From Candidatus Omnitrophota bacterium (GTDB taxonomy: Bacteria > Omnitrophota > Gorgyraeia > Zapsychrales > Fredricksoniimonadaceae): 64,000 nt of DNA. The DNA lies in contig JADFXH010000003.1 of NCBI GenBank assembly GCA_015233675.1, positions 89,279 through 153,278 on the forward strand, in the 5' to 3' direction. The position numbers and the translations under genes were made by a program. The notes beneath the pieces are model-generated. The model was not told where the DNA came from and made no database searches. It was given only the letters and a program-made list of their open reading frames with translations. This document shows positions 5,932-51,640 of the stretch, one piece after another (position 1 is the first letter of the stretch; every line of letters begins with the position of its first letter).

Positions 5932-7230
5932 ATGAACTCTTCAGAGGTGCATACTTATTTAAATTCTTTTACCAATTTTGAATCCCAGCTTCATAAACTG
6001 CTCCCCGAAGATTTTAATCTCAACCGCATCCAAAAATTTTTGGATTTAGCAGGTAACCCTGCAAAGAATTTAAAAATTATCCATGTGGCAGGCACTAAAG
6101 GTAAAGGTTCGACTTGTGCGTTTTTAGCCAGTATTTTGCAGGAGGCGGGCTTCAAAGTCGGGCTATACACATCGCCCCATCTGCACAGGGTCAATGAACG
6201 TATCCGTATTTTAAATACGGAAAATATCCGATCAAAAGATAATTTCAGCGGATCTATCGGCGAGGAGGAGTTAGCATGCGTGCTGACAGATTTGCGTCCT
6301 TTTGCTGCTGCCATCCAAAACGAAGGAAATATCCTTACTTTTTTTGAAGTCCTGACAGTGGCGGCCTTGTATTATTTTGCCAGAAGCCAAGTGGATATTG
6401 TTATTCTGGAAACCGGTTTGGGCGGACGACTGGATGCGACTAACGCAGTGGATTCTTCTATTGCTGTGATTACTCCGGTGAGTCTGGACCATGCCCGGAT
6501 TTTAGGTTCTACGTTGAGCCAAATAGCATCTGAGAAGGCCGGTATTATTAAGAATTCCAACCAGAAAGTCGTGATAGCTCCTCAAGAAAAGCAAGCGATG
6601 GATGTTATTCTCAACCGCTGCCGGGAATTTGGCATTCAGCCCATACTTGTGTGTCCGGATAAATATGAAAATTTAAGGATAGGACTCAAGGGCAAGCATC
6701 AAATGATGAACGCTGCGCTGGCCGTTGAAACGTTGACAGTTTTAAAAACGATGGGATTTAAAATCAGCGATGAAGCGGTGAGTGAAGGATTAAAGCATGT
6801 CCGTTGGCCCGGCAGGTTTGAATTGTTGCAAGAGAGTCCGGATGTGATTGTCGATTGTGCGCATAATGGGGCCTCCGCTCAAGCATTGTCCCGGGCCTTG
6901 AAGGAGGTTTATCATCATCGACGATTGATTTTAGTGCTGGGGATATCCCAGGACAAAGACATAGCGGCCATTTGTTATCATTTAAAAGACAATGCGGCAC
7001 GCATTATTTTGACCAAGGCCCAACATCCCCGGGCGCATCTGTTTACACAAGCAGAGTGTAATGATTATTTCGGTGATAAGCCTTTTGAAATCATAGAGAG
7101 TTTGTCTCAAGCCCTAAAAAAAGCTTTACAAATAGCCCACGTGCAGGATGTTGTTGTAGTGACGGGTTCAATTTTTGTAGTCGCAGAGGCCATTGATTGT
7201 TTAGTCAATAAAGAGCGCGGGCAGGGATAA
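5932..7230 (+). CDS. folC: Folylpolyglutamate synthase / dihydrofolate synthase
   Basis: 432 aa. Mur-ligase P-loop HVAGTKGKGST, LETGLGGRLDATN, and length typical of FolC. Confidence 0.88.
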   Translation: MNSSEVHTYLNSFTNFESQLHKLLPEDFNLNRIQKFLDLAGNPAKNLKIIHVAGTKGKGSTCAFLASILQEAGFKVGLYTSPHLHRVNERIRILNTENIRSKDNFSGSIGEEELACVLTDLRPFAAAIQNEGNILTFFEVLTVAALYYFARSQVDIVILETGLGGRLDATNAVDSSIAVITPVSLDHARILGSTLSQIASEKAGIIKNSNQKVVIAPQEKQAMDVILNRCREFGIQPILVCPDKYENLRIGLKGKHQMMNAALAVETLTVLKTMGFKISDEAVSEGLKHVRWPGRFELLQESPDVIVDCAHNGASAQALSRALKEVYHHRRLILVLGISQDKDIAAICYHLKDNAARIILTKAQHPRAHLFTQAECNDYFGDKPFEIIESLSQALKKALQIAHVQDVVVVTGSIFVVAEAIDCLVNKERGQG

Positions 7231-7493
7231 ATTTGGTCTTTGCGTTGACTCTGATTTGGCGCATTAGCATGGATGAACAGGTATTATGTATTCGGCACGG
7301 AATATTTTTGCCGTCTGCTTCGGTTTACGACAATTTTGTTCTAAAGATTCTCTTCATTTGGAACAAAATTGTCATAAATCCTCGCAGACTTTTGGCAAAA
7401 AATTCCCGAATGTGCCGAATACATAATACCTATTCATCCATGAAGCAACAAATCAGCCAGGAGCAAAAAGAATAAATTCATCCCTTATAATGC
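7224..7493 (+). repeat. Composite palindromic element: family-2 arms bracketing hairpin-family copy A
   Basis: The left arm gggataaatttggtcttt...ctgattt (7224-7257) is imperfectly complementary to the right arm aaatcagccaggagcaaaaagaataaattcatccc (7450-7484). The right arm plus cttataatgc matches the arms of the full family-2 palindrome at 26039-26276. The left arm overlaps the folC stop. Confidence 0.7.
7268..7442 (+). repeat. Long-hairpin intergenic element, copy A (family 1, subfamily with loop TAAAGATTCTCTTCATTTG)
   Basis: Outer arms catggatgaacaggtattatgtattcggcac / gtgccgaatacataatacctattcatccatg. Inner arms tacgacaattttgttc / gaacaaaattgtcata. The core ggaatatttttgccgtctgc pairs with gcagacttttggcaaaaaattcc. 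The track ORF 7233-7475 is a translation of this repeat. Confidence 0.9.
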
Positions 7494-7518
7494 ATTCATG
7501 CGCTAAGGAGTTGAAATT

Positions 7519-8916
7519 ATGTATCAGTATAAAGGCTTGGAAGACACGATCGCGGCGATTGCTACCCCGGCAGGACAAGGGGGTATTGGCATTGTGCGTA
7601 TCAGCGGCAAAGATGCTGTTACAGTGGCCGATGCGGTTCTTCGCCTTCAAGGCAAGAAGACATTAGTCCAAAGCAAAAGTCATACGCTGCAGCACGGATG
7701 GGTCATCAGTACTAAAAGCAAAGAAATCATTGACGAAGTCTTAGTGACGCTGATGCGGGAGCCTAAAAGTTACACTACCGAGGATGTCGTTGAAATTAAT
7801 TGTCATGGCGGTACGACTGTCTTGCGCGCGGTCCTCCATGCGGTGTTAGACGCGGGGGCCCGTCTGGCAACCCCCGGAGAATTTACCAAACGGGCATTCC
7901 TGCATGGCCGCATGGACTTGACCCAGGCGGAAGCGGTGATTGATGTCATCAATGCTAAGACAGAAACATTTTTACGTCAGAGCCATCATCAATTAAAAGG
8001 GGAATTGTCAGATGAGCTTAAAGCTATCCGGGAAGAGTTAATAAAAATATATATGATAATGGAAGCCTTGATTAACTTCCCGGAAGATGACATTGACGCT
8101 CAAGGCCGTCAGCAAATATTAGACCGCATCGGTAATCAAGAGAAGCTCGCAGCCAAACTTTTGGGGTCTTCTAAGAGCGGACGAATCCTTAAAGATGGAG
8201 TGCGTATTGTCTTATGCGGCAAGTCCAATGTCGGCAAGTCATCATTACTTAACGCATTGCTCAAAGAGCAGCGGGCCATTGTTACCGATATTGCCGGTAC
8301 CACCCGGGATGTGCTGGAAGAGTCAGCACAGCTTAAAGGCATCCCTGTTTCGTTGGTGGACACCGCAGGCATATTGGAACCAAGAGATTTGATTGAAGAG
8401 GAAGCGGTTAAGCGCAGTCATCTTTATATTAAAAGCGCTGATTTGGTGCTTTTAGTTTTGGACCATAGCCGTCCTTTAGAAGAGCTGGACATGCTGCTTT
8501 TGGAACAATTAAAATCTGCTCAAGTTTTAGCGGTGGTTAATAAAATGGATTTAGACGGGCAGATAGACATGTCAGTCCCTGAAGGGATATTTGGCAGGGA
8601 ACATGTTTTAAAAATTTCTGCGCTTGAAGCCAGATCAATTTCGCAACTGGAGGCAAAAATTGTTGACTTGATTTGCAAGGACAAAAATTTTGATGCTCAC
8701 GGCATTTTTATCAGCAATATCCGGCATATTAAGGCTTTAGAGGAAGCTCAAAAGAATTTGCAAGACGCCTGCCGTTTAATGATTGAAAATGTTTCCTGGG
8801 AATTCATTTCTGAAGAAATTAAAGCTGCAGTTAATCAAATGGACGCCATCACCGGCCGCAACATCGATGAAGACTTGTTAGACCGTATTTTTTCCGAATT
8901 TTGTATAGGCAAGTGA
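7519..8916 (+). CDS. mnmE: tRNA modification GTPase MnmE
   Basis: 465 aa. G-domain motifs GKSNVGKSSLLN, DTAG, NKMD. C-terminal ...FCIGK tetrapeptide characteristic of MnmE/TrmE. AAGGAG Shine-Dalgarno present. Confidence 0.93.
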   Translation: MYQYKGLEDTIAAIATPAGQGGIGIVRISGKDAVTVADAVLRLQGKKTLVQSKSHTLQHGWVISTKSKEIIDEVLVTLMREPKSYTTEDVVEINCHGGTTVLRAVLHAVLDAGARLATPGEFTKRAFLHGRMDLTQAEAVIDVINAKTETFLRQSHHQLKGELSDELKAIREELIKIYMIMEALINFPEDDIDAQGRQQILDRIGNQEKLAAKLLGSSKSGRILKDGVRIVLCGKSNVGKSSLLNALLKEQRAIVTDIAGTTRDVLEESAQLKGIPVSLVDTAGILEPRDLIEEEAVKRSHLYIKSADLVLLVLDHSRPLEELDMLLLEQLKSAQVLAVVNKMDLDGQIDMSVPEGIFGREHVLKISALEARSISQLEAKIVDLICKDKNFDAHGIFISNIRHIKALEEAQKNLQDACRLMIENVSWEFISEEIKAAVNQMDAITGRNIDEDLLDRIFSEFCIGK

Positions 8917-8945
8917 GCTTAATAGGACAGATAATCAGATTGGAT

Positions 8946-9098
8946 CCCCGCTTTCGCGGGGATGACGTAATAGATTCTGGGATGACGTAATAGATTCTGG
9001 GATGACGTAATAGATTCTGGGATGACGTAATAGATTTGGGTATGACGTAATAGATTCTGGGATGACGTAATAGATTCTGGGATGACAGAATAGATTTT
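8946..9098. repeat. REP-like hairpin followed by a 7-unit 20-bp tandem array
   Basis: Hairpin CCCCGC-tttc-GCGGGG (8946-8961). The unit gggatgacgtaatagattct then repeats head-to-tail from 8959 to 9098, with variants in units 4, 5 and 7. Lies between the convergent genes mnmE and the CvpA-like gene. Confidence 0.9.
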
Positions 9099-9102
9099 GT
9101 TA

Positions 9103-9801
9103 TTAATTAGCGGTTTTCTGCTGCGCTTGGCTTTTGTAGACAGCCATGACTTTTTTCATTGTTGCGGGGTCGCTCATGATTTGCTGGGTTAATTCCATCA
9201 TTTTGGGGTTGCGCATCAGTTTCACAAGGTCATGGTCTTCGATTTCTTTTTGGATTTCAGGGTCCTGCAGGATTTTTTGGAAACGGGGATCTTCTGCTAA
9301 TGTTTTTGTGTCAGGGGTTGGGGAACTTGTGTTTACAGAGGGGCTGTTTTTTAAGGGAGCAAAAAGAACATCTTCAAAGGGTTTAGAGAGAATGTAAGAC
9401 GCGGACTGCAGCACATCATTGTGTACGGCGGTCAATGTTTTTCCTGCAGGCGGTATTACAGACAATAGGATTAAGGATAAGATAATAAACACCCATCCCC
9501 AGATCAAAGTCAGGATGGACCCTGCCAGGCGGCTTAGGACAGTTGGTTTTATATCTGTATTGGTGATATCTGTCCACGTTTTTAGAAGAAATTTTAAAAG
9601 CAGATGCAAAAGTAAAGGGCCGATCAGTCCTATGGCCAGGCTTACTATCATGTTCTTGGTGCTTTGATAATAAATGATGCTGATGATAGTGGCAACTATA
9701 ATAGAGAAAGGACCTAATAGGGATTGCACAAAACCGCGTGAGGCCCCGCGGCTAAGCAAGAATAAACTTAGAAAAAATGTGATAAAGTCTGTTATAGCCA
9801 T
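9103..9801 (-). CDS. CvpA-family membrane protein with a charged helical C-terminal extension
   Basis: 232 aa. The N-terminus MAITDFITFFLSLFLLSRGASRGFVQSLLGPFSIIVA plus 4 hydrophobic segments fits CvpA. The C-terminal ~70 aa are soluble and repetitive (DPRFQKILQDPEIQKEIEDHDLVKLMRNPKMMELTQQIMSDPATMKKVM). Confidence 0.55.
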   Translation of the reverse strand: MAITDFITFFLSLFLLSRGASRGFVQSLLGPFSIIVATIISIIYYQSTKNMIVSLAIGLIGPLLLHLLLKFLLKTWTDITNTDIKPTVLSRLAGSILTLIWGWVFIILSLILLSVIPPAGKTLTAVHNDVLQSASYILSKPFEDVLFAPLKNSPSVNTSSPTPDTKTLAEDPRFQKILQDPEIQKEIEDHDLVKLMRNPKMMELTQQIMSDPATMKKVMAVYKSQAQQKTAN

Positions 9802-10005
9802 TTAATGTTCTGTCACAAAGCGCAGCTGTGCAAGATAATAGATAATAAGGAACACGCAATAGGCCAGAGGAATGATAAAACAGGCCTTGATGATCCATGG
9901 AAAACTTAGCTTAAGTTTAGACTTAGCTAATTTTTCCTTGATTTTGTTGTATTCTTCTATGGAAAGTTGCTTAGCTTTTTGGGAATTTTTAGTATTTTGC
10001 AACAT
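9802..10005 (-). CDS. Small single-pass membrane protein (hypothetical)
   Basis: 67 aa with a Lys-rich N-terminus then one TM segment (WIIKACFIIPLAYCVFLIIYYL). Its TAA stop abuts the ATG of the CvpA-like gene (9801/9802). Confidence 0.4.
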   Translation of the reverse strand: MLQNTKNSQKAKQLSIEEYNKIKEKLAKSKLKLSFPWIIKACFIIPLAYCVFLIIYYLAQLRFVTEH

Positions 10006-11077: not shown

Positions 11078-13780
11078 ATGTCCACTGATTTGTTTTATAA
11101 ATATCTAGCTGATGGAGTGAGTTTCTCCTCAAAGCAAGCGGCTGCCATCAGGACCATCTACGCGCCTTTATGCGGCACAGATGCCTCGAGTATTAAGTCT
11201 GCCATTACCCCTTTTTTAAGCGGGGACATTAAAATTGATAAATTTCATTATCTGACTAAACCTGCATCCCGCGAAGATTTGCGCGGCCCTTTGCGGGAAT
11301 TCTTTGTTTTTATAAAAGACAAAGGGGTTTTTAGCTTATCTCAGGAGTCTTCACCTGACTCAGCATCCGTCGAGATTGGGCCTCTGTGGCATAAACTCAG
11401 GCGTATTCATAAGGCGGCCGGACTGGAATTAACCGCAGTTAATTTTATTCCTGTCAGCGGTGAAAACGTTGAGCTGATGCAGGTGACAGTCAAAAATATT
11501 TCAAAAAAACCGGTCACATTTACGCCGACTTGCGCCATTGCCCTTTTTGGCCGTTCAAGAGACAACAAACATGACCATGAACATGTGACTGCTCTTTTAA
11601 ACCGGGTCAAGCAAATGCCTTTGGGCGTGATGATGCGGGCAACCATGGCTTTTAATGAAGAAGGCCATAAGACAAGCAATGCTGTTTATTATGTGTACGG
11701 CTGTCAGGACAAATCCGGCGGCGTTACGGGCTCTTTCCCCACAGTGGATAGTTTTTATGGCGACGGAGGTTCTTTGTTGTGTCCTGAGGCAGTCTTTGAA
11801 AATCGAAAACCGGTCATGCTGGGAATGCAGGCCATTAACGGCAAAGAAGTGACGGGAGCATTGCGTTTTAAAGAAACTTCTCTTAAGCCAGGGGAAAGCC
11901 GGTCTTTTGTGGTGGCCGTAGGTTTTGGGGCCGATGAAGTCCAAACTAAAGAAAATTTCAGCCATTTTAATTCTGTCGAGAAATTTAACAGGGCTTTAGA
12001 GGCAAATAAAAAATATTGGTCCGATAAGATTTCTGCCATTATGTTTAACACAAGTGATGAAAATTTTAATTCCTGGATGCGATGGGTCACCCTTCAGCCG
12101 GTTTTGCGCCGTATTTTTGGCTGTTCGTTTTTACCGGACCATGATTATGGCAGGGGTGGAAGAGGCTGGAGGGATATTTGGCAGGACCTTCTTTCGCTGA
12201 TACTCATTGAGCCTCACTTGGTCCGCCAGGATTTGATCAATAATTGCGCAGGTATTCGTATTGATGGCAGCAATGCCACCATCATTGGCGGCGGGGCCGG
12301 TGAATTTTTGGCGGACCGCAATGCCATTACTCGTGTGTGGATGGACCATGGGGCATGGCCTTTTTTGACCTTGCTGCTTTATATCGATCAAAGCGGCGAT
12401 TTTGATATTTTGCTGTATAAGCAAAGTTATTTCAGGGACCCGCAATTATCACGAACACAGAAGAAAGATATAGGCTGGGTCAGCCAGTACGGCAACAAGT
12501 TGCTGGATAAAAAAGGACACGTGTATGAAGGGACCATCATAGAACATTTGCTGGTGCAGCATTTGACCCAATTTTTTAATGTCGGGGAACACAATATCAT
12601 CCGCTTGGAAAGCGCTGACTGGAATGATGGTTTGGATATGGCATATTCCAAGGGCGAATCGGTGGCGTTTTCCTGCCTATATGGCGGGAATTTATTAAAG
12701 ATCGCGGATCTTCTTGAAAGCATGGCCGCCATCAAAGGGATAGATAAAATAAGGTTGGCAAAAGAGCTTTTGATCTTACTGGATACTATAGGTGAAAAAG
12801 TCAATTATGAGGATTATCAGTCCAAACACAATCATTTGTTTGGTAAATATTTTCATCGTGTGCAACCTGCCTTAAGCGGGGACACGGTTGAGGTGCCTGT
12901 TAAAGACCTGATAAACGATTTACGAATCAAGGGCCATTGGATATTCGCGCATATTCGTCGTCAGGAAAAAGTCCAATTTAAAGAGGGGGCCAAGACCTAC
13001 AAGTGGTTTAACGGGTACTATGATAATAAAGCCCGCTGTGTGGAAGGTTTTAAAGACAATAAAGTACGCATGACATTGACGGGGCAGGTGTTTTCTGTCA
13101 TGAGCGGGATGGCTTCTGGCAAAGAAGTTGAGGATATCATTAGCAGCGTTGACAAATATTTGAAAGACAAAAAATTAGGAGGCTATCGCCTGAATACGGA
13201 TTTTGGGGTTAGCCATTACCTGGATCTGGGCAGGGCTTTTGGATTTGCCTATGGGACTAAAGAAAATGGGGCTTTTTTTAGCCACATGAGCGTCATGTAC
13301 GCCGCGGCGCTTTATCAGCGCGGGTTTGCGCGGGCAGGTTATAAGGTGCTGCAATCCATTTATCGCATGGCTATCGACGGGGGCCGCAGCAAAATTTATC
13401 CGGGGATCCCGGAATATTTTGACTCAGAGGGCCGCGGCATGTATCATTATTTAACCGGTTCTGCCAGCTGGTTGGTTTTGACCCAGCTAAACCATGCTTT
13501 TGGCGTGCGTGGGTTTAGCGGAGATTTAATGCTGGCTCCTCAACTGGTCAAAGAAGAGTTTAATAAAAAGGGCATTGCCTCGGTATCCTGCCAATTTGCC
13601 GGCAGCCGGCTGACAGTTGAATACCATAATCCGAAAAAGTTAGACGCAGGTCATTATGCAATCAAGGATGTTTTGATAGACGGAAAATCTCCGGCCTTCA
13701 AGCGCACAGCTCAGGATAAAGTCACCATCCAAAGAGCCCTCATCGCCAAAGACGCTCTCATTAAAGTAACTCTTGGGTAA
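11078..13780 (+). CDS. GH94-like (alpha/alpha)6 glycoside phosphorylase/hydrolase (cellobiose-phosphorylase-like)
   Basis: 900 aa. GRGGRGWRDIWQD and ESADWNDGLDM resemble the catalytic-region motifs of GH94 phosphorylases (..DWND..). Size and context (sugar ABC system downstream) fit. Substrate unknown. Confidence 0.55.
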   Translation: MSTDLFYKYLADGVSFSSKQAAAIRTIYAPLCGTDASSIKSAITPFLSGDIKIDKFHYLTKPASREDLRGPLREFFVFIKDKGVFSLSQESSPDSASVEIGPLWHKLRRIHKAAGLELTAVNFIPVSGENVELMQVTVKNISKKPVTFTPTCAIALFGRSRDNKHDHEHVTALLNRVKQMPLGVMMRATMAFNEEGHKTSNAVYYVYGCQDKSGGVTGSFPTVDSFYGDGGSLLCPEAVFENRKPVMLGMQAINGKEVTGALRFKETSLKPGESRSFVVAVGFGADEVQTKENFSHFNSVEKFNRALEANKKYWSDKISAIMFNTSDENFNSWMRWVTLQPVLRRIFGCSFLPDHDYGRGGRGWRDIWQDLLSLILIEPHLVRQDLINNCAGIRIDGSNATIIGGGAGEFLADRNAITRVWMDHGAWPFLTLLLYIDQSGDFDILLYKQSYFRDPQLSRTQKKDIGWVSQYGNKLLDKKGHVYEGTIIEHLLVQHLTQFFNVGEHNIIRLESADWNDGLDMAYSKGESVAFSCLYGGNLLKIADLLESMAAIKGIDKIRLAKELLILLDTIGEKVNYEDYQSKHNHLFGKYFHRVQPALSGDTVEVPVKDLINDLRIKGHWIFAHIRRQEKVQFKEGAKTYKWFNGYYDNKARCVEGFKDNKVRMTLTGQVFSVMSGMASGKEVEDIISSVDKYLKDKKLGGYRLNTDFGVSHYLDLGRAFGFAYGTKENGAFFSHMSVMYAAALYQRGFARAGYKVLQSIYRMAIDGGRSKIYPGIPEYFDSEGRGMYHYLTGSASWLVLTQLNHAFGVRGFSGDLMLAPQLVKEEFNKKGIASVSCQFAGSRLTVEYHNPKKLDAGHYAIKDVLIDGKSPAFKRTAQDKVTIQRALIAKDALIKVTLG

Positions 13781-13823: not shown

Positions 13824-14021
13824 CTGCAAACCAGGGAAGTATGGACAGCTATTATGTATTCGGCACGGGAATATTTTCGCCGTCTGCTACGGTGTACAGT
13901 TTGGATGCTATCGCGATAAGGCATACGCGGCATCCAAGCTGTAAAGCCTTGCAGACTTTTGGCGAAAAATTCCCAAATGTGCCGAATACATAATAGCTGT
14001 CCATGCTTCCCGCGATTGCAG
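13824..14021 (+). repeat. Long-hairpin intergenic element, copy B (family 1, subfamily with TATCGCGATA apical module)
   Basis: Arms ctgcaa..gggaagtatggacagctattatgtattcggcac / gtgccgaatacataatagctgtccatgcttccc..ttgcag. Same core (gaatattttcgccgtctgc / gcagacttttggcgaaaaattc). A different apex: tacagtttggatgc-tatcgcgataaggcatacgc-ggcatccaagctgta. Confidence 0.9.
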
Positions 14022-20590: not shown

Positions 20591-20604
20591 TAAAAAATAC
20601 TGTC

Positions 20605-20864
20605 ATTTAAATTTGTTCTTTTTATTCGTGACGTAATATATTCCGTGATGGATGAACAGATATTATATATTCGGCACGGGATATTTTTGCCGTCTGCTTC
20701 GGTTTACATCAAAAATATTCTAAAGATTCTCTTCATTTGGAATATTTTTGATGTAAACCCTCGCAGACATTTGGCGAAAAATCCCCGAATGTATCGAATA
20801 TATAATATCTGTTCATCCTTGCGGATATGCTAAAGCACAGTCGCTTCAAATAACAAATTTAAAT
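20605..20864 (+). repeat. Composite palindromic element: family-2-type arms bracketing hairpin copy C
   Basis: atttaaatttgttcttttt (20605-20623) is complementary to aaataacaaatttaaat (20848-20864). The right flank gcacagtcgcttcaaataacaaattt matches the right arm of the 26039-26276 palindrome (gacacagtcgcttcaaagaacaaattc). Confidence 0.7.
20650..20818 (+). repeat. Long-hairpin intergenic element, copy C (family 1)
   Basis: Arms ggatgaacagatattatatattcggcac / gtatcgaatatataatatctgttcatcc. Inner arms tacatcaaaaatattc / gaatatttttgatgta (perfect). Apical loop identical to copy A. The track ORF 20645-20833 is a translation of the repeat. Confidence 0.9.
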
Positions 20865-20955
20865 AGCTATTTATCTATGCTAATGTGCCAATGAAATATG
20901 GCCTTCCTATATAAATCTTCTTCCTGCGGGAAATAGTATAAACAGAAAGATTATT

Positions 20956-24193: not shown

Positions 24194-25567
24194 ATGGAAC
24201 CATTAGTTGGCAATAATCCACAAGAGCCTAAATCGTTAAAAGGCTGGAAAAATGAGGTAACTCATCCAAGCCTGCGTGAGGTGCATGCCTCGATACCGGT
24301 ATTTGCCAACGCGAGTGTTTGGCGAAAGATCCTTGCTTTTGTGGGCCCTGGATTTATGGTTGCGGTTGGTTATGTAGATCCGGGTAACTGGGCAACCGAT
24401 ATTGCAGGCGGTGCTAAATATGGATACGCCCTACTTTCGGTGATTTTAATTTCAAATTTTATGGCTATACTCCTTCAGTATCTAGCCTTAAAGTTAGGAA
24501 TTGTCACAGGCCGTGACTTAGCCCAGGCTTGCCGCGACCATTATTCTAAACCAGCCGCTATTTTCCTGTGGATTATGTGTGAAATTGCCATTGCCGCCAC
24601 TGATTTGGCTGAGGTCATAGGTTCTGCCATTGCGCTTAATTTATTATTTAAAATCCCCTTAGTTGTTGGTGTTTTGATCACGGCTTTTGACGTAATGCTT
24701 TTTTTATTTTTGCAGCATAAAGGCTTCAGGGTTTTGGAAGGCATAGTGATAGTTCTTATTACTACCATGGGAGTTTGTTTTGCCTATGAGCTTACTCTTT
24801 CACATCCGGCTTGGGGATTAATGATGGGGAATTTGCTGCCTAAACCGGAATTAGTGACGGATCCGGGCATGCTTTATATTTCTATGGGGATTATTGGCGC
24901 AACGGTAATGCCGCATAATTTGTATTTGCATTCCAGTATTGCCCAGACCAGGGCCTTTGAGCGCAACGACCAAGGAAAGGCCATGGCCATTCGCTATGCG
25001 AATTTCGACTCTACCTTTGCTTTATTCGGAGCCTTTTTTGTCAATGCATCTATTTTAGTTTTGGCCGCTGATCTTTTTCATGGGACGGGACATCAAAATG
25101 TTGCTGATATTAACACGGCGTATCAATTATTGACCCCTCTTTTGGGCACTTCGTCTGCGGCTATTGTGTTTGCCGTAGCGTTATTAGCTTCCGGTCAAAA
25201 CTCAACATTAACAGGCACCTTGGCAGGGCAAATTGTCATGGAAGGGTTTTTAGATTTACGTCTCCGTCCCTGGGTGCGTCGATTGATGACACGTTTGATA
25301 GCGATCGTTCCGGCTGTTATTATAATAATGCTGTATGGAAGCAAGGGCATGGGGAATCTGTTAATTTTTAGCCAGGTGATCTTATCCATACAATTGGGTT
25401 TTGCGGTGTTTCCTCTTGTTCTTTTTACCAGTGATCCAAGAAAAATGGGCCGTTTTGTTAACGGTTCCTGGCTGAAAGCAATGGCATGGGTTGTTACTGG
25501 TTTTATCATTATATTGAATGCCTACTTATTGATTGTGACCATAGTCTCATGGTTTAAAGGAGGGTAA
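24194..25567 (+). CDS. mntH: Nramp-family divalent metal (Mn2+/Fe2+) transporter
   Basis: 457 aa, about 11 TM segments. Nramp signatures DPGNWATDIAGG and MPHNLYLHS. Confidence 0.9.
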   Translation: MEPLVGNNPQEPKSLKGWKNEVTHPSLREVHASIPVFANASVWRKILAFVGPGFMVAVGYVDPGNWATDIAGGAKYGYALLSVILISNFMAILLQYLALKLGIVTGRDLAQACRDHYSKPAAIFLWIMCEIAIAATDLAEVIGSAIALNLLFKIPLVVGVLITAFDVMLFLFLQHKGFRVLEGIVIVLITTMGVCFAYELTLSHPAWGLMMGNLLPKPELVTDPGMLYISMGIIGATVMPHNLYLHSSIAQTRAFERNDQGKAMAIRYANFDSTFALFGAFFVNASILVLAADLFHGTGHQNVADINTAYQLLTPLLGTSSAAIVFAVALLASGQNSTLTGTLAGQIVMEGFLDLRLRPWVRRLMTRLIAIVPAVIIIMLYGSKGMGNLLIFSQVILSIQLGFAVFPLVLFTSDPRKMGRFVNGSWLKAMAWVVTGFIIILNAYLLIVTIVSWFKGG

Positions 25568-25572
25568 ATTTA

Positions 25573-26004
25573 ATGTATCATAAAATTCTCATTCCTTTAG
25601 ATAATTCACCGACGGACAAGGCCATTCTAGACCACATTCGTCCTTTAGCCAGAATGACTAAGGCGGATTTGATTTTAGTTCATGTGGCCGATGGTTTTGT
25701 GGCACGTTTACAAGATCAATTAAATTTGGCGGATTCTGAAGAAATTAAAAAGGACAAATTCTATTTGGATGCATGTTCTCAAGAATTAACCAAAGAGGGT
25801 TTTAATGTTAAAGCGATCCTGGCACAGGGCAAAGAGCCCGCGGACGGTATTTTAGACATAGCCCAAGTCGAAAATTGTGATTTGATCGCCATGGCAACTC
25901 ACGGGCATGGACCTGTACAGGATTTTATTTTAGGCAGTGTCGCCGACACGTTAAGGCACCGCACAGATATCCCTATTCTAATGATCCGCTCAGCGAATAA
26001 ATGA
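25573..26004 (+). CDS. Universal stress protein (UspA family)
   Basis: 143 aa. MYHKILIPLDNS... and the C-terminal ATP-binding motif ATHGHGPVQDFILGSVA. Confidence 0.8.
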   Translation: MYHKILIPLDNSPTDKAILDHIRPLARMTKADLILVHVADGFVARLQDQLNLADSEEIKKDKFYLDACSQELTKEGFNVKAILAQGKEPADGILDIAQVENCDLIAMATHGHGPVQDFILGSVADTLRHRTDIPILMIRSANK

Positions 26005-26038
26005 AAGCATTGTGATCCTCCGAAGTTGTTTCCCGCAA

Positions 26039-26276
26039 GCGAGCATTATAAGGGATGAATTTGTTCTTTTTGCTCCTGGCGTCATTTTCTTAACGCCAAA
26101 AATTCTTATGATGACGCGGTGGTCAAACAACTCGTCCCGACGATTTCTGTTCGTCGGGACTCAAACATGTTTGACCATTTAAGACTGAGGTCGTAAATGC
26201 CCTCGTCATCATAAGTTTTTTGGCTAAAAATGACACAGTCGCTTCAAAGAACAAATTCATTCCTTATAATGCTCGC
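26039..26276. repeat. 238-bp family-2 palindrome with nested internal hairpins
   Basis: Outer arms gcgagcattataagggatgaatttgttcttt / aaagaacaaattcattccttataatgctcgc. Nested pairs cttatgatgacg/cgtcatcataag, ggtcaaaca/tgtttgacc, gtcccgacg/cgtcgggac. Confidence 0.85.
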
Positions 26277-26311
26277 ACCAATAGGCAAATTGTTTCTTCG
26301 GACACACTTAA

Positions 26312-26485
26312 GAAGGATGAACAGCTATTATGTATTCGGCACATTTGGGAATTTTTCGCCAAAAGTCTGCAAGGCTTTACAGATTGGATGCCGTGAATGA
26401 TTTATCGCGATAGCAGCCAATGTGTAAACCGTAGCAGACGGCGAAAATATTCCCGTGCCGAATACATAATAGCTGTTCATCCTTC
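26312..26485 (-). repeat. Long-hairpin intergenic element, copy D (family 1, TATCGCGATA subfamily, inverted relative to copy B)
   Basis: 31-bp perfect outer arms gaaggatgaacagctattatgtattcggcac / gtgccgaatacataatagctgttcatccttc. The core and apex are the reverse complement of copy B's. Confidence 0.9.
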
Positions 26486-26545
26486 ATGCATGGATGGGCG
26501 CGTTGGTGTTGACAATCGTCGTAATTAGAGGTATTTTAATCGCCT

Positions 26546-28402
26546 ATGAATTCATTTGATTGCATAGTTATAGGTGCCGGGCATGCCGGAGTTGAGGCGG
26601 CTTTGGCAGTGGCCCGCATGGGCCTTAAGACAGCCATGGTTACCTTCTCTAAAGAGACCATAGGACAGATGAGCTGTAATCCGGCTATCGGCGGGGTGGG
26701 CAAAGGGCAGCTGGTTAAAGAAATCGATGCTTTAGGCGGTGAGATGGGTTTGGCTGCTGACCAAACGGGCATCCAGTTTCGCCAGCTAAATGCTTCCAAA
26801 GGACAGGCCGTTCGCTCCTCGCGCTGCCAGTCTGACCGAAAGCAATACCGGTTGTATATGAAGCAAGTGGTTTTAAATCAGCCGAATTTGACCGTCATTG
26901 AAGATAAGGCCAGTGAATTGCTGGTGCTTCAAGGAACGATCCAGGGAATCAAGACTGCCGGTGGGGTAACCTTAAAAGCTCCGACGGTTGTCATCGCCAC
27001 GGGCACTTTTTTAGACGGGCGCATCCATATCGGGCCACAGATCACCCCCGGCGGGCGAATTGGCGAGCAGGCATCTCATCGGTTGGCCCAATCCATCCGT
27101 GATCTGGGCTTTGAGGTCCTAATGTTTAAGACAGGGACCCCTCCGCGGCTCGACGGGCGTACCATTGATTTTAATAATATGGAGCGCCAGGATTCGGATG
27201 ATCCCATTTTGCCGTTTTCTTTCAGGACGCCGTTTATTCCTAAAGACCGAAAACTATTGCCTTGTTATATTACGCGCACGACCGAACGTACGCACGAGAT
27301 CATCAGGGCCAATTTCCATTTATCACCGATGTATTCCGGCCAGATTAAAGCGACGGGTGTGCGTTATTGCCCTTCCATCGAAGATAAATTAAAAAAATTT
27401 GCGCATAGGCCGTCTCATCATGTTTTCCTGGAGCCTGAAGGGCTGGATACTTTTGAATGTTATCCTAACGGGATATCGACGGGGCTTCCGGCCCATGTGC
27501 AGGAAGAAATGGTCCATTCCATCCCCGGCCTTGAGAAGGCCGTGATGGTGCGCCCCGGGTATTCTATCGAGCATGGGGTGGTGCCGGCGACAGAATTAAA
27601 GCTGACATTGGAGACAAAGAAAATAAAAGGTTTATTCTTAGCAGGGCAGATCAATGGTACAACCGGCTATGAGGAAGCTGCGGCCCAGGGCCTTGTCGCG
27701 GGTATTAACGCCGCTTTGAACGTTCAAGGTAAAGAGCCTTTTATTTTAGGCCGGCATGAATCCTATATCGGAGTATTGATCGATGATTTGACCACCAAAG
27801 GTACCGAGGAGCCTTACCGCATGTTTACCTCGAGGGTGGAGTATCGTCTGATCGTACGTGAGGATAACGCGGATAAGCGGCTGGCACAACAGGGGCATCG
27901 ATTAGGACTTTTGTGTTCCCAGGATTATGATAAGGTCATTGAAAAATACGCGGCTATTGAGAGACAGATCGAGCATTTACGAACGAAAAGAGTCCCGCCG
28001 GGGACTCCATTGGATGGAATCCTGGAGAATGCCGCGAGCGCACCTTTAAAGCAGTCGATCTCCTTATATGATTTGCTTAAAAGACCGGAGATCAATTATG
28101 ACATGATTTTGGGATTTGACGGGGCTCTTAAAGATTTAGGCCGCCAGGTGATAGCTCAGGTCGAATATGAAATCAAGTATGAAGGATTTATCCGCCGTCA
28201 GAAAAAGGAAGTGGAGAAATTCCGGCACATCGAATATATCCGTATACCTGAAGGGTTTGATTTTAACGGGATCCCGGGGCTTTCCAGAGAGATCATAGAG
28301 AAGCTAAAGCGTTTTAATCCTGTCACATTGGGTCAGGCTAACCGTATTTCCGGAATGACTCCGGCGGCCATCACCATTTTGATGATTTATTTAAGAAAAT
28401 AA
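26546..28402 (+). CDS. mnmG: tRNA uridine 5-carboxymethylaminomethyl modification enzyme MnmG (GidA)
   Basis: 618 aa. N-terminal FAD-binding DCIVIGAGHAGVEAA, GQMSCNPAIGG, and length and C-terminal helical domain typical of MnmG. Confidence 0.93.
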   Translation: MNSFDCIVIGAGHAGVEAALAVARMGLKTAMVTFSKETIGQMSCNPAIGGVGKGQLVKEIDALGGEMGLAADQTGIQFRQLNASKGQAVRSSRCQSDRKQYRLYMKQVVLNQPNLTVIEDKASELLVLQGTIQGIKTAGGVTLKAPTVVIATGTFLDGRIHIGPQITPGGRIGEQASHRLAQSIRDLGFEVLMFKTGTPPRLDGRTIDFNNMERQDSDDPILPFSFRTPFIPKDRKLLPCYITRTTERTHEIIRANFHLSPMYSGQIKATGVRYCPSIEDKLKKFAHRPSHHVFLEPEGLDTFECYPNGISTGLPAHVQEEMVHSIPGLEKAVMVRPGYSIEHGVVPATELKLTLETKKIKGLFLAGQINGTTGYEEAAAQGLVAGINAALNVQGKEPFILGRHESYIGVLIDDLTTKGTEEPYRMFTSRVEYRLIVREDNADKRLAQQGHRLGLLCSQDYDKVIEKYAAIERQIEHLRTKRVPPGTPLDGILENAASAPLKQSISLYDLLKRPEINYDMILGFDGALKDLGRQVIAQVEYEIKYEGFIRRQKKEVEKFRHIEYIRIPEGFDFNGIPGLSREIIEKLKRFNPVTLGQANRISGMTPAAITILMIYLRK

Positions 28403-36128: not shown

Positions 36129-36169
36129 TTTTTATTTATTGTTATTTTGTCGTGCATTCTAACATGTAT

Positions 36170-36346
36170 GCTTAGATGACCGGCTATTATGTATGCGGCA
36201 CATTCGGGAATTTTTTGCCAAATGTCTGCAAGGATTTATGACGAAAATGTTCCAAATGAAGAGAGTCTTTAGAACAGTTTCGTCATAAACCGTAGCAGAC
36301 GGCAAAAATATTCCGTGCCGCATACATAATAGCCGGTCATCTAAGC
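36170..36346 (-). repeat. Long-hairpin intergenic element, copy E (family 1, inverted)
   Basis: 32-bp perfect outer arms gcttagatgaccggctattatgtatgcggcac / gtgccgcatacataatagccggtcatctaagc. The apical loop is the reverse complement of copy A's with one substitution. The track ORF 36159-36383 (-) is a translation of the repeat. Confidence 0.9.
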
Positions 36347-39316: not shown

Positions 39317-42300
39317 ATGAAAAAGGCGTTTTGTATACTGACCCTCTTGTGCTTTTTGGTCACAAGCATCTTGGGGCCGAGCCCTGTTTTCGCTCAGTCT
39401 GCCTTGCCGGCAGGCAGTGATATTCGTTTGCCTGCACCAGGGCAAAGGGTCCATTTAAGCCAGCCATTTAATCCCCCAATCCTTAAAGGGATCAAAATCC
39501 ATCCTAATAATCCTTTCCGTTTTGATTTTATTCTGGACAAAGGAGATCTAGAGACGCCATTAATGGCGTCTCTACAAAATGAATCAACGAAATTAATCAA
39601 ATATTTCCTGGCCAGTTTAACCATCCCCGAAAAAGACCTGTGGGTAAACTTATCCCCGTATGAAAAAGACAGTATAGTCCCGCAGTCTTTTGGTCAAACA
39701 GAGATGGGGAGAGATCTGTTGGCTGAAGATTACATTCTTAAGCAAATAACAGCATCGCTTATTTATCCTGAAGATGAGGTTGGTAAGAAATTCTGGAAGC
39801 GGGTATATGAAGAAGCAGCTAAAAGATTTGGATCGACAAATATTCCGGTCAATACTTTTAATAAAGTTTGGATAGTTCCAGCAAAAGCGGTGGTTTACGA
39901 GAATGTTGAAGCGAAAACAGCATATGTGGTTGAATCGAAATTGAAAGTAATGCTTGAGCAGGATTATTTAGCTTTGTCAAAAAATCAAATGCAAACCAGT
40001 GGCCGCCAACCAGGGGACATGTTCAATATAGAACAACAAAAGAACGTGTCCCCAAGCACGCTGCCAAACGAATTAGGGCTGAATGTGAAAGCTCCCCCAG
40101 GGCAACATTCCAACGATTTACAAGGCGTCAATGAATTAGGCTCCAAAATCGTCAGGGAAATCGTCATTCCCGAACTAACCAAAGAAGTCAACGAAGACAA
40201 GAATTTTTCACAACTTCGTCAAGTCTACAATTCATTGATTCTAGCGACATGGTACAAAAAGAAAATTAAAGACAGCATCCTGGCACAGGTGTATATAGAT
40301 AAGAAAAAGGTTTTGGGCGCAGGTTATGAGCTAAGTATTATCCCAGAGTTGCCGACCAGGGGACGTGTCCCCGCTTTTGGGGACGTGTCCCCAAGCTGTA
40401 CGCCAAGCAGCAAAGGGCTGAATGTGAAAGCGACCCAGAGGAACAAGCCTAACGATGTGGAACTTATCTACCAACGCTACCTCCAAGCTTTTAAAAAAGG
40501 CGTTTACAATTATATCAAAGAGGAAATTGACCCTGCCACTGATGAAACGATACCGAGAAAGTATTTTTCGGGAGGATTTGATGCAACAGATTTTGCTCAA
40601 CTAACCTTAGAAACAGTAAATACAATTGATTACGCTCAGTTAGGGGATTTGACCCACATGGTTAAGATTTCTGCCGGAATTAATGTGGTTGATAAGGCCA
40701 TGATAAGTAATGAGCAGATGAATGCAAAATTGATCGATGCTTATCAAGGCCCTTCTGATGAAGAAATGGTGGATTTGACCCCGTGGTTTGGAGAAAGCGC
40801 TCTAAAAGAGGGATTCTTGAAAAATTCTTTTATTTTACCCAATGGTAAGACTTGGGGGCGGCAGGTGTACATGAGAGTTGGGGGGGGGTTAAGAAAAGTG
40901 GAAGTCATTGTTCATAAGAAAAATAGGGAGGTAACAGGCATTACATTAGTAGGCTATAAAGGGGATGAAGTGAGCAGCCAAAGCCAATGGATATGGGATG
41001 GGGAAAAATTTAATTATAAAGTCCCGGAAGATAAAATTATCCAACAGCAGATAGAAAATAAGGTAACGCAAGAGTTAATGGATGCCTATAATAATGGCCC
41101 TGACGGTGTAGAGGTAAAACTAACCGAGTGGATTGGAGAAGTTCCCTTGAGAAAAGGATATATGAAAGCATCTTTTATTTTACCAAACGGGGAATTTTTG
41201 GGACGAAATATGGGTTTGGGGCTCATGAATTTGACACAAGTTAAAGCAGTTATTCATAAGAAAGGAGGCAAAGTTGAAGGGATAACTTTAGTTGGTTATA
41301 GGGAAGAGAAAGAGGTTGTAAGAAATAAATGGGAATGGGATGGGAATAACCTGAACTATCCAAAACAGCAGATAGAGGACAAGGTAAAACGGGAATTAGT
41401 CAATGCTTATGAGAGCGGGCCGGACGGAACCCTTGTAGATATAACTGATTTTATTGGGAAAAGCTCATTAGATTTTGGACTCATGAAATCATCGTTTATT
41501 TTGCCTGATGGAGATACATGGGGCCGGCAGGAATCGATGAGGGTTAAAACTAAATTGACAAAAGTAAAAGTTGTTATTCATAAGAAAAAAGGAGAGGTTT
41601 CAGGAACAACTTTTATTGGTTATAAAGGAGATAAAGAAGCAGGGCGCAGTGAATGGCAATGGGATGGAAAGAAATTTATTTATCAAGAAAATAAAGTAAA
41701 ACAAGAATTAATAAATGCCTATGAAAACGGGCAGGACGAAACGACGGTAGATATAACTGATTTGTTGGGAGAAAGAAAATTGAAAGACGGGGTCTTGGGT
41801 ATGTCATTTATTTTACCAAGTGGTAAAACCTGGGGCATTGAAGAAGCGATGAAAGTGGGGGTTAATTTAACGTCAAGTAAAGTGGTTATACATAAAAAAG
41901 AGGGAAAAATCGTTGGAATAACTTTGATTGGTTATAGAGGCGAAAAAGAATGGGGCCGCAGTGAATGGACATGGGATGGGAAGAAGTTTAGCAGTTATTC
42001 TCAAACTAAGCAACGTCAGGTAGGGGATAAGGAAATGGAAGAGGTAGTAAATGCTTATCGGGATGGGCCTGATGGGAAAATAATAGATTTGACCGACTGG
42101 CTTAAAGGAAGCTCTTTGGAATCAGGCACTATGAGAGGGGCATTCATCTTACCTAATGGTGATATTTGGCATGGCTATGAGTATATGAAAGTAGGGATAA
42201 ATTTAACACAAGCTAAAATAGTTGTTCATAAAAATGAACAAAATGTTACAGGTATTACTTTTATTGGGTACAGAGGAGACAAAGAAATAGGGCGAAGTGA

Positions 42301-45300
42301 ATGGGTATGGCATGAAAATAAGTTTAATTATCATGCCCCAGCAGATAAAGCAAGGCAGCAAGAGGCCGGGGATAGGGTAAGGCAGGAATTAATTAGCGCT
42401 TATCAGAATGGTCCGGATGGGACAACAATTGATTTAACTGATTGGCTAGGAAAGGCCTATTTGAAAAATGCTCTATTAAGGAATACGTTTATTTTACCTG
42501 ATGGGAATACTATGGGAAAATCAGGAAATGAAACAAGAACAAAAATTGGAGCTGTCAATTTAACACGAATGAAGGTGATCATTCATAAGAAGGCAGACAA
42601 TGTTGAGGGACTTACTTTTGTTGGTTATAGGGGCGATAACGGAATTGAGAAGGAAGTTGGGCGTAGTGAATGGCAATGGGTGGGGGGAAATTTAAATTAT
42701 CAAGCCTCAGAGGATAAAATGAAGCAGCAGCAGATAGGGGATAACGTCAAGCAAAGATTAATGAGGGCTTACCGCGAAGGCCCTGATGGGAAAGAAGTGG
42801 ATTTGACGGATTGGCTGCAAGAAGAAAATTTAAAAAGAGGAGTCATAAAGAATACATTTATTTTGCCCAATGGCGCGAACTGGAGAAATAGAGAAAATAA
42901 TTATATGAAGGTAGGCATAAATTTAACCCAGGCGAGCGTTGTTATCCACAAGAACGATAATAAGGTGGAGTCAATAAGTTTTGTGGGTTATAAAGATGGA
43001 CAGGAATCAGGCCGAAGCCAATGGTTATGGGATGGCACAGAATTTATTTATCAAAACAATGTGCTTAAAAATCATCCTGATGTTCAAGAAGCCATTGCAT
43101 CAATAACGAAGAATTTAGATGAAATATTCCTAAATAATCTTGGAGAATTGACGGGGCGTTATGTAGTGGATATAAAGAATTTGTTATGGGGATTAGCAGG
43201 GCATCAATTAAAAGGCAAGTACGATGAAGAAACAATCAGGAAGCTGATTGATAATCAACTTAGGGAGTTATTTGAAGAAGAGGAAGGTCTTCAATCCATT
43301 GATACAGTTGATATCAAAGAACAGGGCAAAGAGGAGTCTCCTGGATTTTTAGAAGAGCCCAATCTAACGCAGGAAGAGATTTCAGCCTTTGGACGGGCAG
43401 TTGAAGAACATCTTAAGAATTTAGAGCAGGATGAAGGTTTACGGAACATTGTACGGGATCAGGCCAAGAACTTTATCCGTAAATTAGAGGAAAAATATTT
43501 TTTCAGGCAATATTATCGGGATTTCCCGCAAGATTTATTAGGCCAGGAAGTGTCGGTGATGCTGGATCTGGCTATTGAAGAAGAAAAAGGAAGTATTACC
43601 AAAGAGGTTTTAGGGGATATATTACAAGAAGTCAAAGAAGCGCTGGCATACCAGGAAAAATTAGTAAAACTTGGCGTTAAGACACCGATGAATTTATATC
43701 AATTGTTAACCATGAAGAAAGTTTTAGATTTAAAAGGGATAGTCTTGGCTGATGAAATGGGCCTCGGCAAGACGCTTCAAGCACTGGCTTCTTTTTTACT
43801 AAGCGGGAAAGAGGAGATGTTGGTTTTAGGGCCCAAATCTGTCTTGAGCCGGTGGATGGATGATATGGGCAAGCACCTTGATACGCCGTTGGAACTTGTT
43901 ATTTTAGGTGAGTTTGATCCGTTGCTAATTTTATCTGAGAATCCGAAAATAAAGATTACGGTAGTCAGGAAAGAGGACAGGTTTAATTATATTTTAAATC
44001 CCCGGCCCCCCGCAACAGAAGGGCACAAGCGAGTAGTCTTAATGAATTATGAATTATTGCCGAATATGCAGAACTATCGACATAAGAATCAATTGCCGGC
44101 CATCCACACAGATTTTCTTGCCCTTGATGAAGCTCATTTATTAAAAAACCGTTACACAGACACTTCCAAAGCTGTGTATGGAGATTCACAAGGCCAGGGA
44201 TATATCGAAGCTGAATATAAAATGGTGATGACAGGAACGCCGCTGGAAAACAGGCCGCAGGACATGTATGCGCCGTTACAATATTTGGCAAGAGGCGGCA
44301 CGAGCGATGAGGAGAAGTTTTTTGCCGGTTTAACTGCCCGCCAATTTGCCGCTAACTTTGCCAAAGAGAGACTAGACCGTTTGTCGATGTTACATAGCTA
44401 TATATCGTCCCGCATGGTTCGTCGATATAAAGAGGATGTTTTAACAGGATTGCCCCAAAAGGAAGAAAAGATCGTAAAATTAGACCCTTTGCGCAGAGTG
44501 ATGAAAATAGGAGACAGAGAAATCCCGCTTGCGGGCAATTACCAGCAGCAAATGAGTTTATACGAGAAAGCTTACAGTGCGCCGGGATACTTTGATCGTA
44601 AGTATATTCAATTTGATGACGAAGAAGACATTAGTGAGACACCGGAATCAGAAGTCACGGAAGAAAAAAGTTCCCGGAGTCGGCATGGGATACAATTGAT
44701 TCGGATGGAGCAAGCGGCTTTAAGTCCGGATTTTTTTGAAGAAGGCGCTGATTCGATCAAGTTTGATGCCGCTAAAATGCTTGTTAAAGAAAGAGTGGCC
44801 CAGGGCAAATCGGTAATTATTTTTTCAAATTACCGTCAGCCTTTAGGGAAATTGCGCAGTGAAATAAGCCAAATGATCGGTGAAGATCAAGTGGCCTATG
44901 TGGATGGTACGGTAGTTGATAATGATCGTCAGAAACAAATAGACCTTTTTCAGGCAGGCCAAGCTAAGGTTATGGTGGCGACTATCGCCACTTTAGGGCT
45001 AGGGATTGAGTTGACCCAAGCGGATTCAATAATTTTTTTAAATTACCCCTGGAAGCCATCTACATTTAAGCAAGCCATTGACCGGGCTCATCGACGGGAT
45101 GATCAGCGTAATATGCCCGGCAAGAAACTGGAGATCATAAGCCTTGAGTACGATGCTCCCATGTCTATAGATCATGAAAAGGCAAAAGTATTAAAACGCA
45201 AGAACATCCTGGCTGAGATGATCATAGAAGGAAATTTGACTCCGGAGGTTTTACGAGCGTTTCGGGATGTTGATAAACGGCTGGTCGATAGTTTAAAAAA

Positions 45301-46941: not shown

Positions 46942-46953
46942 TAATAAATGGAT

Positions 46954-47044
46954 TCCCGCTTTTGCGGGAATGACAAAGGATTGGAAAAGGGAATGACAAA
47001 GGATTGGAAAAGGGAATGACAAAAGATTAGAAAAAGAAATGACA
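46954..47044 (+). repeat. REP-like hairpin followed by a 23-bp tandem array (~3.4 units) running into the hsp20 start codon
   Basis: Hairpin TCCCGC-tttt-GCGGGA (46954-46969). Units gggaatgacaaaggattggaaaa at 46966, 46989 and 47012 (variant), plus a partial fourth unit agaaATGACA that contains the hsp20 ATG (47039). Confidence 0.9.
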
Positions 47045-47369: not shown

Positions 47370-47540
47370 CATTGGAATGAAGCGGGAAAGTTACGGAGGG
47401 AGGCTCGGAATTGATGTTTAGGGCGGACGGTAAGTGATGTTAGGGCGAATAAGGGAAACTACCGTTCTATAAGGCTTCTGTAAACGGATTTGAACCAGGA
47501 GCACCTAAACATCAAGGCCGAGACAGGCCCCGCCGCTGGA
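47370..47540 (+). promoter_or_regulatory. Conserved structured leader, copy 1 (upstream of clpB)
   Basis: Arms ctcggaattgatgtttagg (47404-47422) / cctaaacatcaaggccgag (47504-47522) enclose ~80 nt. Followed by the conserved gacaggccccgc and ctggattaat. Paralogous to 53755-53917. Confidence 0.4.
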
Positions 47541-51618: not shown

Positions 51619-51640
51619 AAAGGACATGGAGGATATTTAT

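Follow-up and report, generated by a model that had tools for sequence, protein, structure and literature searches.

ERIC (IRU) and Correia (NEMIS) elements are imperfect palindromes of 100–250 bp found in transcribed intergenic regions; ERIC size variants are internal insertions or deletions at fixed sites, and Correia elements end with -10-like hexamers. IS1397 and ISKpn1 insert into the loops of REP/PU sequences. REPINs are REP doublets that form hairpins and are mobilised by RAYT transposases (Bertels & Rainey, 2011; PMC3116915), and they are known to evolve in a way that preserves the hairpin (PMC3116915). Pneumococcal BOX, RUP and SPRITE and the BIMEs of E. coli are mosaic interspersed repeats, and BOX, RUP and SPRITE insert into one another (PMC10969869). 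In Coxiella, IS1111 inserts into QMITE2, a palindromic repeat of 3'-UTRs (PMC5896051). We found no published work on repeats of Omnitrophota, an uncultivated group, in the literature.

In the 64-kb stretch of Omnitrophota DNA that we analysed (the window), we found that positions 26039–26276, between usp (25573–26004) and mnmG (26546–28402), form a 238-nt palindrome, and that the three further nested pairs described in an earlier note on this DNA are indeed present within it. The second hairpin that the note had placed just outside is also there, beginning 35 nt beyond the palindrome. We refer to the palindrome as a copy of family-2 and to its neighbour as copy D of family-1, which is a covarying rod of ~175 nt. 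Family-2 arms are of two types, distinguished by their internal loop (R, GCGACTG; L, CAGGAGC), and we call the strand that reads from the R arm to the L arm the forward strand. The features of the locus are:

26039–26276, minus strand: full-length family-2 element, starting 35 nt past the usp stop codon; minus is the better-folding forward strand
26039–26069: L-type half of outer stem P1, partner of 26246–26276
26246–26276: R-type half of outer stem P1, including TATAAT
26072–26079, minus strand: invariant internal-loop motif in helix 2, reading CCAGGAGC on the forward strand and forming tandem G.A with 26236–26242 (invariant columns C197–A208)
26236–26242, minus strand: partner motif of the internal loop, GCGACTG on the forward strand (invariant G33 and G35–G39)
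26099–26221, minus strand: interior, with two stems and a side hairpin at about 26177–26199
26134–26160, minus strand: apical hairpin (helix 6) with a freely varying 10-bp stem, compensatory changes in 11 of 13 pairs
26312–26485, minus strand: family-1 copy D, 5' partner of the family-2 copy in a fixed-polarity dimer

The outer arms are 31 nt long and 97% complementary, with one mismatch. Inside them lie 26099–26119/26201–26221 (21 nt, 86% complementary, with an exact 12-nt core), 26120–26129/26168–26177 and 26134–26143/26151–26160 (10 nt and 100% complementary in both cases). Fold prediction for the palindrome showed that both RNA strands and single-stranded DNA are far more stable than shuffled sequence: -120.9 kcal/mol for the plus strand (z -16.1), -124.0 kcal/mol for the minus strand (z -16.1) and -78.9 for ssDNA (z -15.8). 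The apical loop reads ACAGAAA in this copy and CCAGAGA in most family-2 copies. In the window, the genes and the G-rich leading strand are on plus and the forward strand of the palindrome is on minus.

The right arm contains a promoter-like TTCAAA-16-TATAAT (26243–26270) that faces outwards on the plus strand and scores 10/12. We rejected the arms as promoters: the family consensus has only a -10-like TACAAT and a poor -35. The true mnmG promoter, TTGACA-17-TATTTT at 26509–26537, lies downstream of the arm and of the repeats and is conserved in L002 and L006, which indicates that the organism uses canonical sigma-70-type promoters. Outward promoter activity of the arms is thus at most a possible side effect. 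A small ORF in the arm (MNLFFLLLASFS) was also rejected, since most copies lack the ATG (GGGATAAAT). A plus-strand scan of 25900–26600 and 7150–7560 for intrinsic terminators found none. We also observed that the Nramp and Usp pair (24194–26004) lies between LacI and mnmG in the window and that Nramp is likewise between LacI and mnmG in L012; in the L002 and L006 lineages mnmG follows LacI directly.

A scan of metagenomes with the arm motif AGGAGCAAAAAGARYAAATT returned 88 loci (given here as L numbers). In about 50 of them, which come mainly from peat and bog samples, the motif lies in an extended context, with AAAAACGATTCC before it and TATCCCTTACAATGC after it. Several loci are syntenic with the window at 75–91% protein identity, and we compared syntenic contigs from two lineages with it; the nearest relatives of the window genome have an MnmG identity of at most 89%. 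In about 750 kb of examined loci, there are 34 near-full family-2 copies of ~240 nt. Family-2 is thus of MITE size, dispersed and present in many copies, and it has no conserved ORF. Its terminal inverted repeats are the 31-nt arms, and in relatives the pairing extends to GCRYGCATTGTAAGGGAT. Arms-only derivatives also occur (90–133 nt as extracted, or 71–101 nt between arm cores), one of whose deletion junctions is common to three loci, as do variants with small additional inserts. The latter were seen in L043 (3528–3789), L036 (1668–1800) and L023 (3614–3866) at fixed internal points; L043 and L036 have a 30-nt insert in common (GGTCCTCATACCGGACACTC...), and the L023 insert is an 18-nt GC hairpin. 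These inserts are nesting at a smaller scale. Many metagenome contigs terminate within a family-2 copy, as expected of a high-copy element.

Searches further afield gave nothing comparable. An outer-arm 20-mer had a single chance match, in Paenibacillus, among the contigs of GTDB representative genomes; the viral contigs, plasmids and phages searched had no family-2 match; and the window had no Rfam 15 match at the gathering threshold, with E-value mode returning only generic miRNA-hairpin matches far under threshold. In the P0009 lineage, we found no family-2 copy in 22 kb of syntenic DNA.

To quantify how strongly the fold is kept, we aligned 27 well-aligned family-2 copies over 65 pairs and used 500 shuffles and slid alignments as controls. 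The consensus fold is a rod with a side hairpin, and the values were:

cells paired: observed 95.1%, shuffled 83.0%, slid 38–49%
pairs of 65 with compensatory double changes: observed 36, shuffled 24.0, slid 12–20
covariation score: observed 0.371, shuffled 0.151, slid 0.06–0.09

None of the 500 shuffles reached the observed pairing and covariation values. A profile of the 27 copies detected the window palindrome at E 3e-52 on the minus strand and 6e-09 on the plus strand (nhmmer). As in REPINs, the hairpin is kept through compensatory substitutions. The stems vary freely: the 10-bp apical stem occurs with many unrelated sequences, P1 (helix 1) has compensatory changes in 14 of 24 pairs, and the outermost 12 bp, in the most variable stem of the element, fall into at least five sequence classes that covary. 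We rejected this outermost stem as an independent small palindrome family or target, as there are no free-standing copies of it. Several unpaired positions do not vary. An invariant 2x2 tandem G.A is formed by GC-GA-CTG opposite CAG-GA-GC, a second such motif (C-GA-G/C-GA-G) is found in the side hairpin of most copies, and GAGTTGTT, CACCG and the apical loop CCAGAGA are also invariant. Thus, each layer of the rod is kept by compensatory change, and the bulges and apical loop are constant.

The two strands are not equivalent. The forward strand is the more stable in 26 of 27 copies (means -115.6 versus -102.5 kcal/mol), RNAalifold gives -71.4 for forward and -58.7 for reverse, and there are 77 G:U against 20 A:C, or 25 against 12 when only the pairs predicted for both strands are counted. 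The L-arm end of family-2 is typically 3–10 nt from the stop codon of a gene that runs into the copy. Among the 24 fully scored cases, 15 have flanking genes opposite to the forward strand and 3 have them on that strand. In the window, the better-folding strand is on the lagging strand, that is, on the leading-strand template. IS200/IS605-derived PATEs have subterminal hairpins and lack terminal inverted repeats, and their active strand is on the lagging-strand template; family-2 differs from them in its strand as well as in having ends that pair with each other. An antisense better-folding strand is predicted neither by a 3'-UTR role nor by an IS200/IS605-type ssDNA model.

We then examined gain and loss at orthologous sites:

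TPR|hyp206: window, composite C; L002, L006 and L012, nothing
LacI|next gene (Nramp): window, empty; L012, family-2
MJ0043_C|uvrD: window, family-1 E; L002, full family-2; L006, empty
w11078|w14132: window, family-1 B; L066, empty
dnaK|dnaJ: window, family-1 F; L075, family-2

A gene-end site common to four genomes has family-2 copies of different subfamilies. The earlier note had proposed to look for empty sites: several orthologous sites are empty in relatives, and no empty recipient was found for composites A and C. In the examined DNA there was none for the composite type of A and L016, and none at strain level for A, C or the palindrome at 26 kb, the nearest relative being at 89% MnmG identity. 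Both flanks of about 35 family-2 copies were inspected and have no direct repeats and no defined cut sites. We found no transposase or autonomous parent in the window or the examined metagenome loci, and no RAYT (Y1 HUH) gene among the ORFs scanned in the 64-kb window. In the examined loci, the members of an arm pair are never further apart than 456 nt, and no neighbouring ORF recurs. Family-2 is a single complex rod and not two inverted REPs with a spacer, and its arms differ from the CGTC REP-like hairpins nearby.

Taken together, these data show that family-2 is a previously undescribed, structurally constrained, dispersed non-coding repeat of an Omnitrophota clade, gained and lost between related genomes and usually located a few bases past a stop codon. 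We think that family-2 and family-1 are probably structure-dependent, non-autonomous interspersed repeats of the MITE/REPIN kind that form mosaics and nest at hairpin tips. Family-2 would then be a non-autonomous mobile element that is copied or retained through a protein, encoded elsewhere in the genome, that recognises its folded forward strand with the tandem G.A, and family-1 would be another such element. Any influence on genes, through stop codons, mRNA 3' ends or possibly an outward -10 box, would be secondary. Several observations count against a mobile element: target-site duplications, defined cut sites and a transposase or autonomous parent were not found in the DNA examined, nor were strain-level empty sites for A, C and the 26-kb copy; the better-folding strand is usually antisense to the neighbouring genes; the termini of MITEs are normally their most conserved part and here the outermost stem is the most variable; and the covariation, invariant G.A motifs and constant loop fit a functional RNA equally well.

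The strongest competitor, which we nevertheless judge unlikely, is that family-2, with or without family-1, is a multicopy structured RNA that the host selects at each locus, dispersal being secondary. It could act in cis at gene ends, or be an independent ncRNA gene of ~240–430 nt whose forward-strand transcription converges with that of the upstream gene. Such an RNA would account for covariation in all helices, for the invariant unpaired motifs with two 2x2 tandem G.A loops and a constant CCAGAGA, for the clear strand preference, for the fixed location beside stop codons and for the occupation of the same gene-end sites in several genomes. However, there is no convincing promoter into the forward strand and no terminator after it; a paired outermost stem would need full transcription; arms-only derivatives without the whole interior persist at several loci; orthologous sites have different subfamilies or are empty; the P0009 lineage has no copy in its 22 kb of syntenic DNA; and there is no Rfam match.

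A more far-reaching form of the mobile-element reading, which we put forward as improbable and yet worth stating, is that these elements are defined by structure and not by sequence. A protein would recognise the folded forward strand through tandem G.A and CCAGAGA, and copies would integrate at the apices of hairpins already present, either at gene ends or in other copies, accreting shell by shell like a Russian doll. If true, this would account for outermost stems that vary and yet covary, for shuffled shells, for nested composites and for the post-stop position, and such transposition, or RNA- or ssDNA-templated copying, is not known to have been described for bacterial repeats.

The mosaics themselves take two forms. 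In the first, family-1 and family-2 lie side by side: family-1 is within 80 nt of the R-arm end at 10 of 32 family-2 copies, in identical orientation in 10/10, and on the L-arm side in 0/32. These dimers are at different loci, and the palindrome with copy D at 26 kb is one of the ten. In the second, family-1 is nested. Along with the 26-kb pair, the window contains the following features. Together the two families number seven copies in its 64 kb, and at this density such repeats probably shape operon boundaries.

7224–7267, plus strand: R-type family-2 arm remnant of composite A, overlapping the folC stop codon
7268–7442, plus strand: family-1 copy A, nested between family-2 arms
7443–7493, plus strand: L-type family-2 arm of composite A (profile E 4e-08; TATAAT at 7484–7489)
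13824–14021, plus strand: family-1 copy B, which has its own additional outer shell; L066 lacks it at the orthologous site
20604–20646, minus strand: degenerate L-type arm of composite C
20647–20821, plus strand: family-1 copy C, nested, in orientation opposite to the enclosing arms
20822–20866, minus strand: R-type arm of composite C, kept through TTTAGC
36134–36346, minus strand: family-1 copy E (36170–36346) with a degenerate arm-like left flank
53571–53747, plus strand: family-1 copy F (53580–53738) at a hairpin apex, downstream of dnaK

Dimers together with the nested composites A, C and L016 make these mosaic clusters of the BIME and BOX/RUP/SPRITE type.

Copy F is direct evidence that family-1 enters at a hairpin tip, and it is one clear apex insertion. 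It lies at the apex of the hairpin GGCCGCGAG/CTCACGGCC, whose halves are at 53571–53579 and 53739–53747, and in L075 the hairpin GGCCGCGAGCAATCGCGGCC is uninterrupted directly past the dnaK stop codon. The reconstructed empty site matches L075 with a score of 15.5 (shuffles 4.9 ± 2.2, maximum 13); site F has no target-site duplication. We also observed that the split hairpin is a member of a further group ('family-4'), which consists of GGCCGCGAGCAATCGCGGCC with about 90 nt downstream and follows unrelated genes at L075 691–800, L016 9796–9891 and L071 2623–2723. A tRNA-like sequence is present on the minus strand of L075 at about 850–930, between the dnaK-end hairpin and family-2.

In the composites, family-2 arms of ~45 nt surround family-1. 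Judged by arm type, composite C is oriented like the 26-kb copy, and composite A runs the opposite way. The left arm of A overlaps the folC stop, as first noted: the folC ORF ends at 7230, with TAA at 7228–7230 within the arm motif GGGATAAATTTGG, and folC terminates within the outer arm in L080 as well. The TATAAT of composite A is ~30 nt upstream of the mnmE ATG (7519). On its R side, A is similar to the arms-only derivative found in L020. A third composite, L016, is at a non-orthologous locus downstream of an epimerase gene. Its inner junction, GCATTAG, is that of A, and the family-1 cores of the two (CAGGTATTATG type) are nearly identical, but the core is flipped relative to the arms. The proposal that the same arms carry different cargo thus holds: they enclose a standard interior of ~150 nt in the 34 near-full copies, next to nothing in the arms-only derivatives, family-1 in A, C and L016, and a third element in L002. 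The two explanations that the earlier note had offered for this are each partly right, since copy F shows a palindrome within the loop of another and the dimers found at 10 of 32 family-2 copies, all in one order and polarity, show a modular structured element. Whether composites are single ancestral units, which the note had named as a refutation, comes out differently by composite: the common junction of A and L016 speaks for it, and the other junctions of C against.

Under the mobile-element reading, mosaics would arise in two ways, by the fixed-polarity side-by-side dimer seen at 26 kb and by family-1 occupying a hairpin apex. The host hairpin would be a simple one at a gene end in the case of copy F and a family-2 copy emptied of its interior in A, C and L016, and nesting would most likely come about by integration, or break repair, at the hairpin tip. 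A composite, once formed, could itself persist and spread; the common junction and core of A and L016 suggest that this composite type probably does also spread or descend as a unit.

It is doubtful, in our view, that the composites arose instead without insertion, through an interior swap (recombination or gene conversion) between a family-1 and a family-2 copy lying near each other, or from one ancestral composite that spread. The GCATTAG junction and core that A and L016 have in common despite their different loci are consistent with this, as are the folC site, where L080 has a full family-2 followed by family-1 and the window has family-1 within the arms, and the shuffling of outer-shell classes and interior subfamilies among copies. 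However, C differs in its junctions and in how much of the arms is left, with more of the R arm kept than in A; family-1 occurs in both orientations relative to the arms; and copy F is a family-1 that entered a hairpin outside family-2.

The recurrence of family-2 arms around copies A and C is itself well established, with a chance expectation of about 0. The arm similarities were measured against a chance background, as the earlier note had asked of its own claim. In the window, AAAGAACAAATTCATCCCTTATAATGC at up to 3 mismatches matches only 7467–7493, 26043–26069 (minus) and 26246–26272, GCCAGGAGCAAAAAGAACAAATT only 7456–7478 and 26058–26080 (minus), and CACAGTCGCTTCAAAGAACAAATT only 20836–20859 and 26234–26257, each of these three long patterns with 0.00 matches expected. 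That palindrome and arms are a coincidence of AT-rich intergenic sequence has practically no chance of being right and is already refuted, since only the left arm of A (7225–7241, 2 mismatches in 17, in the right place and register) is weak alone, at 0.43 matches expected, against 0.00 for the other arm patterns, a fold z of about -16 and dozens of homologous copies in other genomes.

Other repeats are present in the same DNA. GC-rich hairpins of the form GATTCCCGC-N4-GCGGGAATGAC (CGTC or TGTC plus ATTCCCGC... on the other strand) are found in the window at 8938–9119, 46951–47045 and 51595–51624 and resemble CGTC-tagged REPs; at 8958–9119 and 46966–47045, the 3' half of the hairpin and its flank are tandemly repeated in units of 20 nt and 23 nt. 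There are 25 such hairpins in the examined DNA, some adjoining family-2, and we rejected them as a fixed third module because they adjoin only 5 of 32 family-2 copies. A 119-nt palindrome at 47404–47522, between hsp20 and the next gene (47575–50160), has homologues of about 70% identity in L073, L016 and L075 and represents another interspersed hairpin family. A 129-nt palindrome (53781–53909) with 26-nt arms (88%) occupies part of the interval from family-1 copy F to dnaJ; we found no homologue of it in the examined DNA. A 'family-3' (start ATTCGGCCATTGTATTTCCTTCTCAGGCAC) occurs in L002 at 9651–9815 and 12896–13145, once alone upstream of mnmG and once within family-2-like arms, and also in L003–L005, L053 and L094; a 76-nt indel in mid-element distinguishes strains L002 and L003, and in L021 a family-3 fragment is fused to an L arm. 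Apart from the hairpins, 39317–46834 is an ORF of 2505 aa with at least 7 tandem repeats of about 110 aa (312–369-nt period, 60–79% DNA identity).

These Omnitrophota repeats supply stop codons, as at folC, and demonstrably break metagenome assemblies, and profiles of the families would aid the annotation and binning of Omnitrophota MAGs. The families are dispersed like MITEs and at the same time show RNA-like covariation in layers, with invariant non-Watson-Crick motifs. These traits are normally apart, and their union makes the families a good system in which to study the selection of small bacterial repeats as folded single strands and hairpin tips as integration sites.

Among the described systems, REPINs resemble family-2 in being non-coding, high-copy and extragenic, in having a long hairpin as the unit with pairing kept by compensatory change, and in forming populations that persist within a lineage while the gene that mobilises them lies elsewhere in the genome. 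These genomes also contain CGTC-tagged REP-like hairpins (for tag classes, see PMC3733652). In contrast to REPINs, which are about 70–110 nt long, family-2 is about 240 nt and has a multi-branched interior, invariant G.A loops and a constant apical loop; its arms are not REP sequences, and it forms a fixed-polarity dimer with a second family. BOX, RUP, SPRITE and BIMEs are similar in that several small structured families cluster downstream of genes, are modular and insert into one another. They differ in sequence and host phylum, the Omnitrophota units are much longer rods, and in Omnitrophota the nesting is specifically at the apex and the order and polarity are strict (10/10 dimers). ERIC/IRU and Correia elements have the palindromic form, internal size variants and -10-like hexamers at their ends in common with family-2; however, family-2 has no TA target duplication or conserved termini, its covariation is much stronger and layered, and its strand preference is antisense to genes. 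With QMITE2 and IS1111, and with IS1397 and ISKpn1, it is likewise the palindrome itself that is the preferred target of another mobile element, but there the incoming element is a transposase-encoding IS, whereas in Omnitrophota both partners are non-coding hairpins. Thus, the nesting and clustering of small repeats (BIMEs, BOX/RUP/SPRITE, QMITE2) and hairpin-preserving evolution (REPINs) are already known; what is new is the host phylum, the size and layering of the rod, the invariant G.A motifs, the strict polarity of the dimer and apical nesting in which both hairpins are non-coding.
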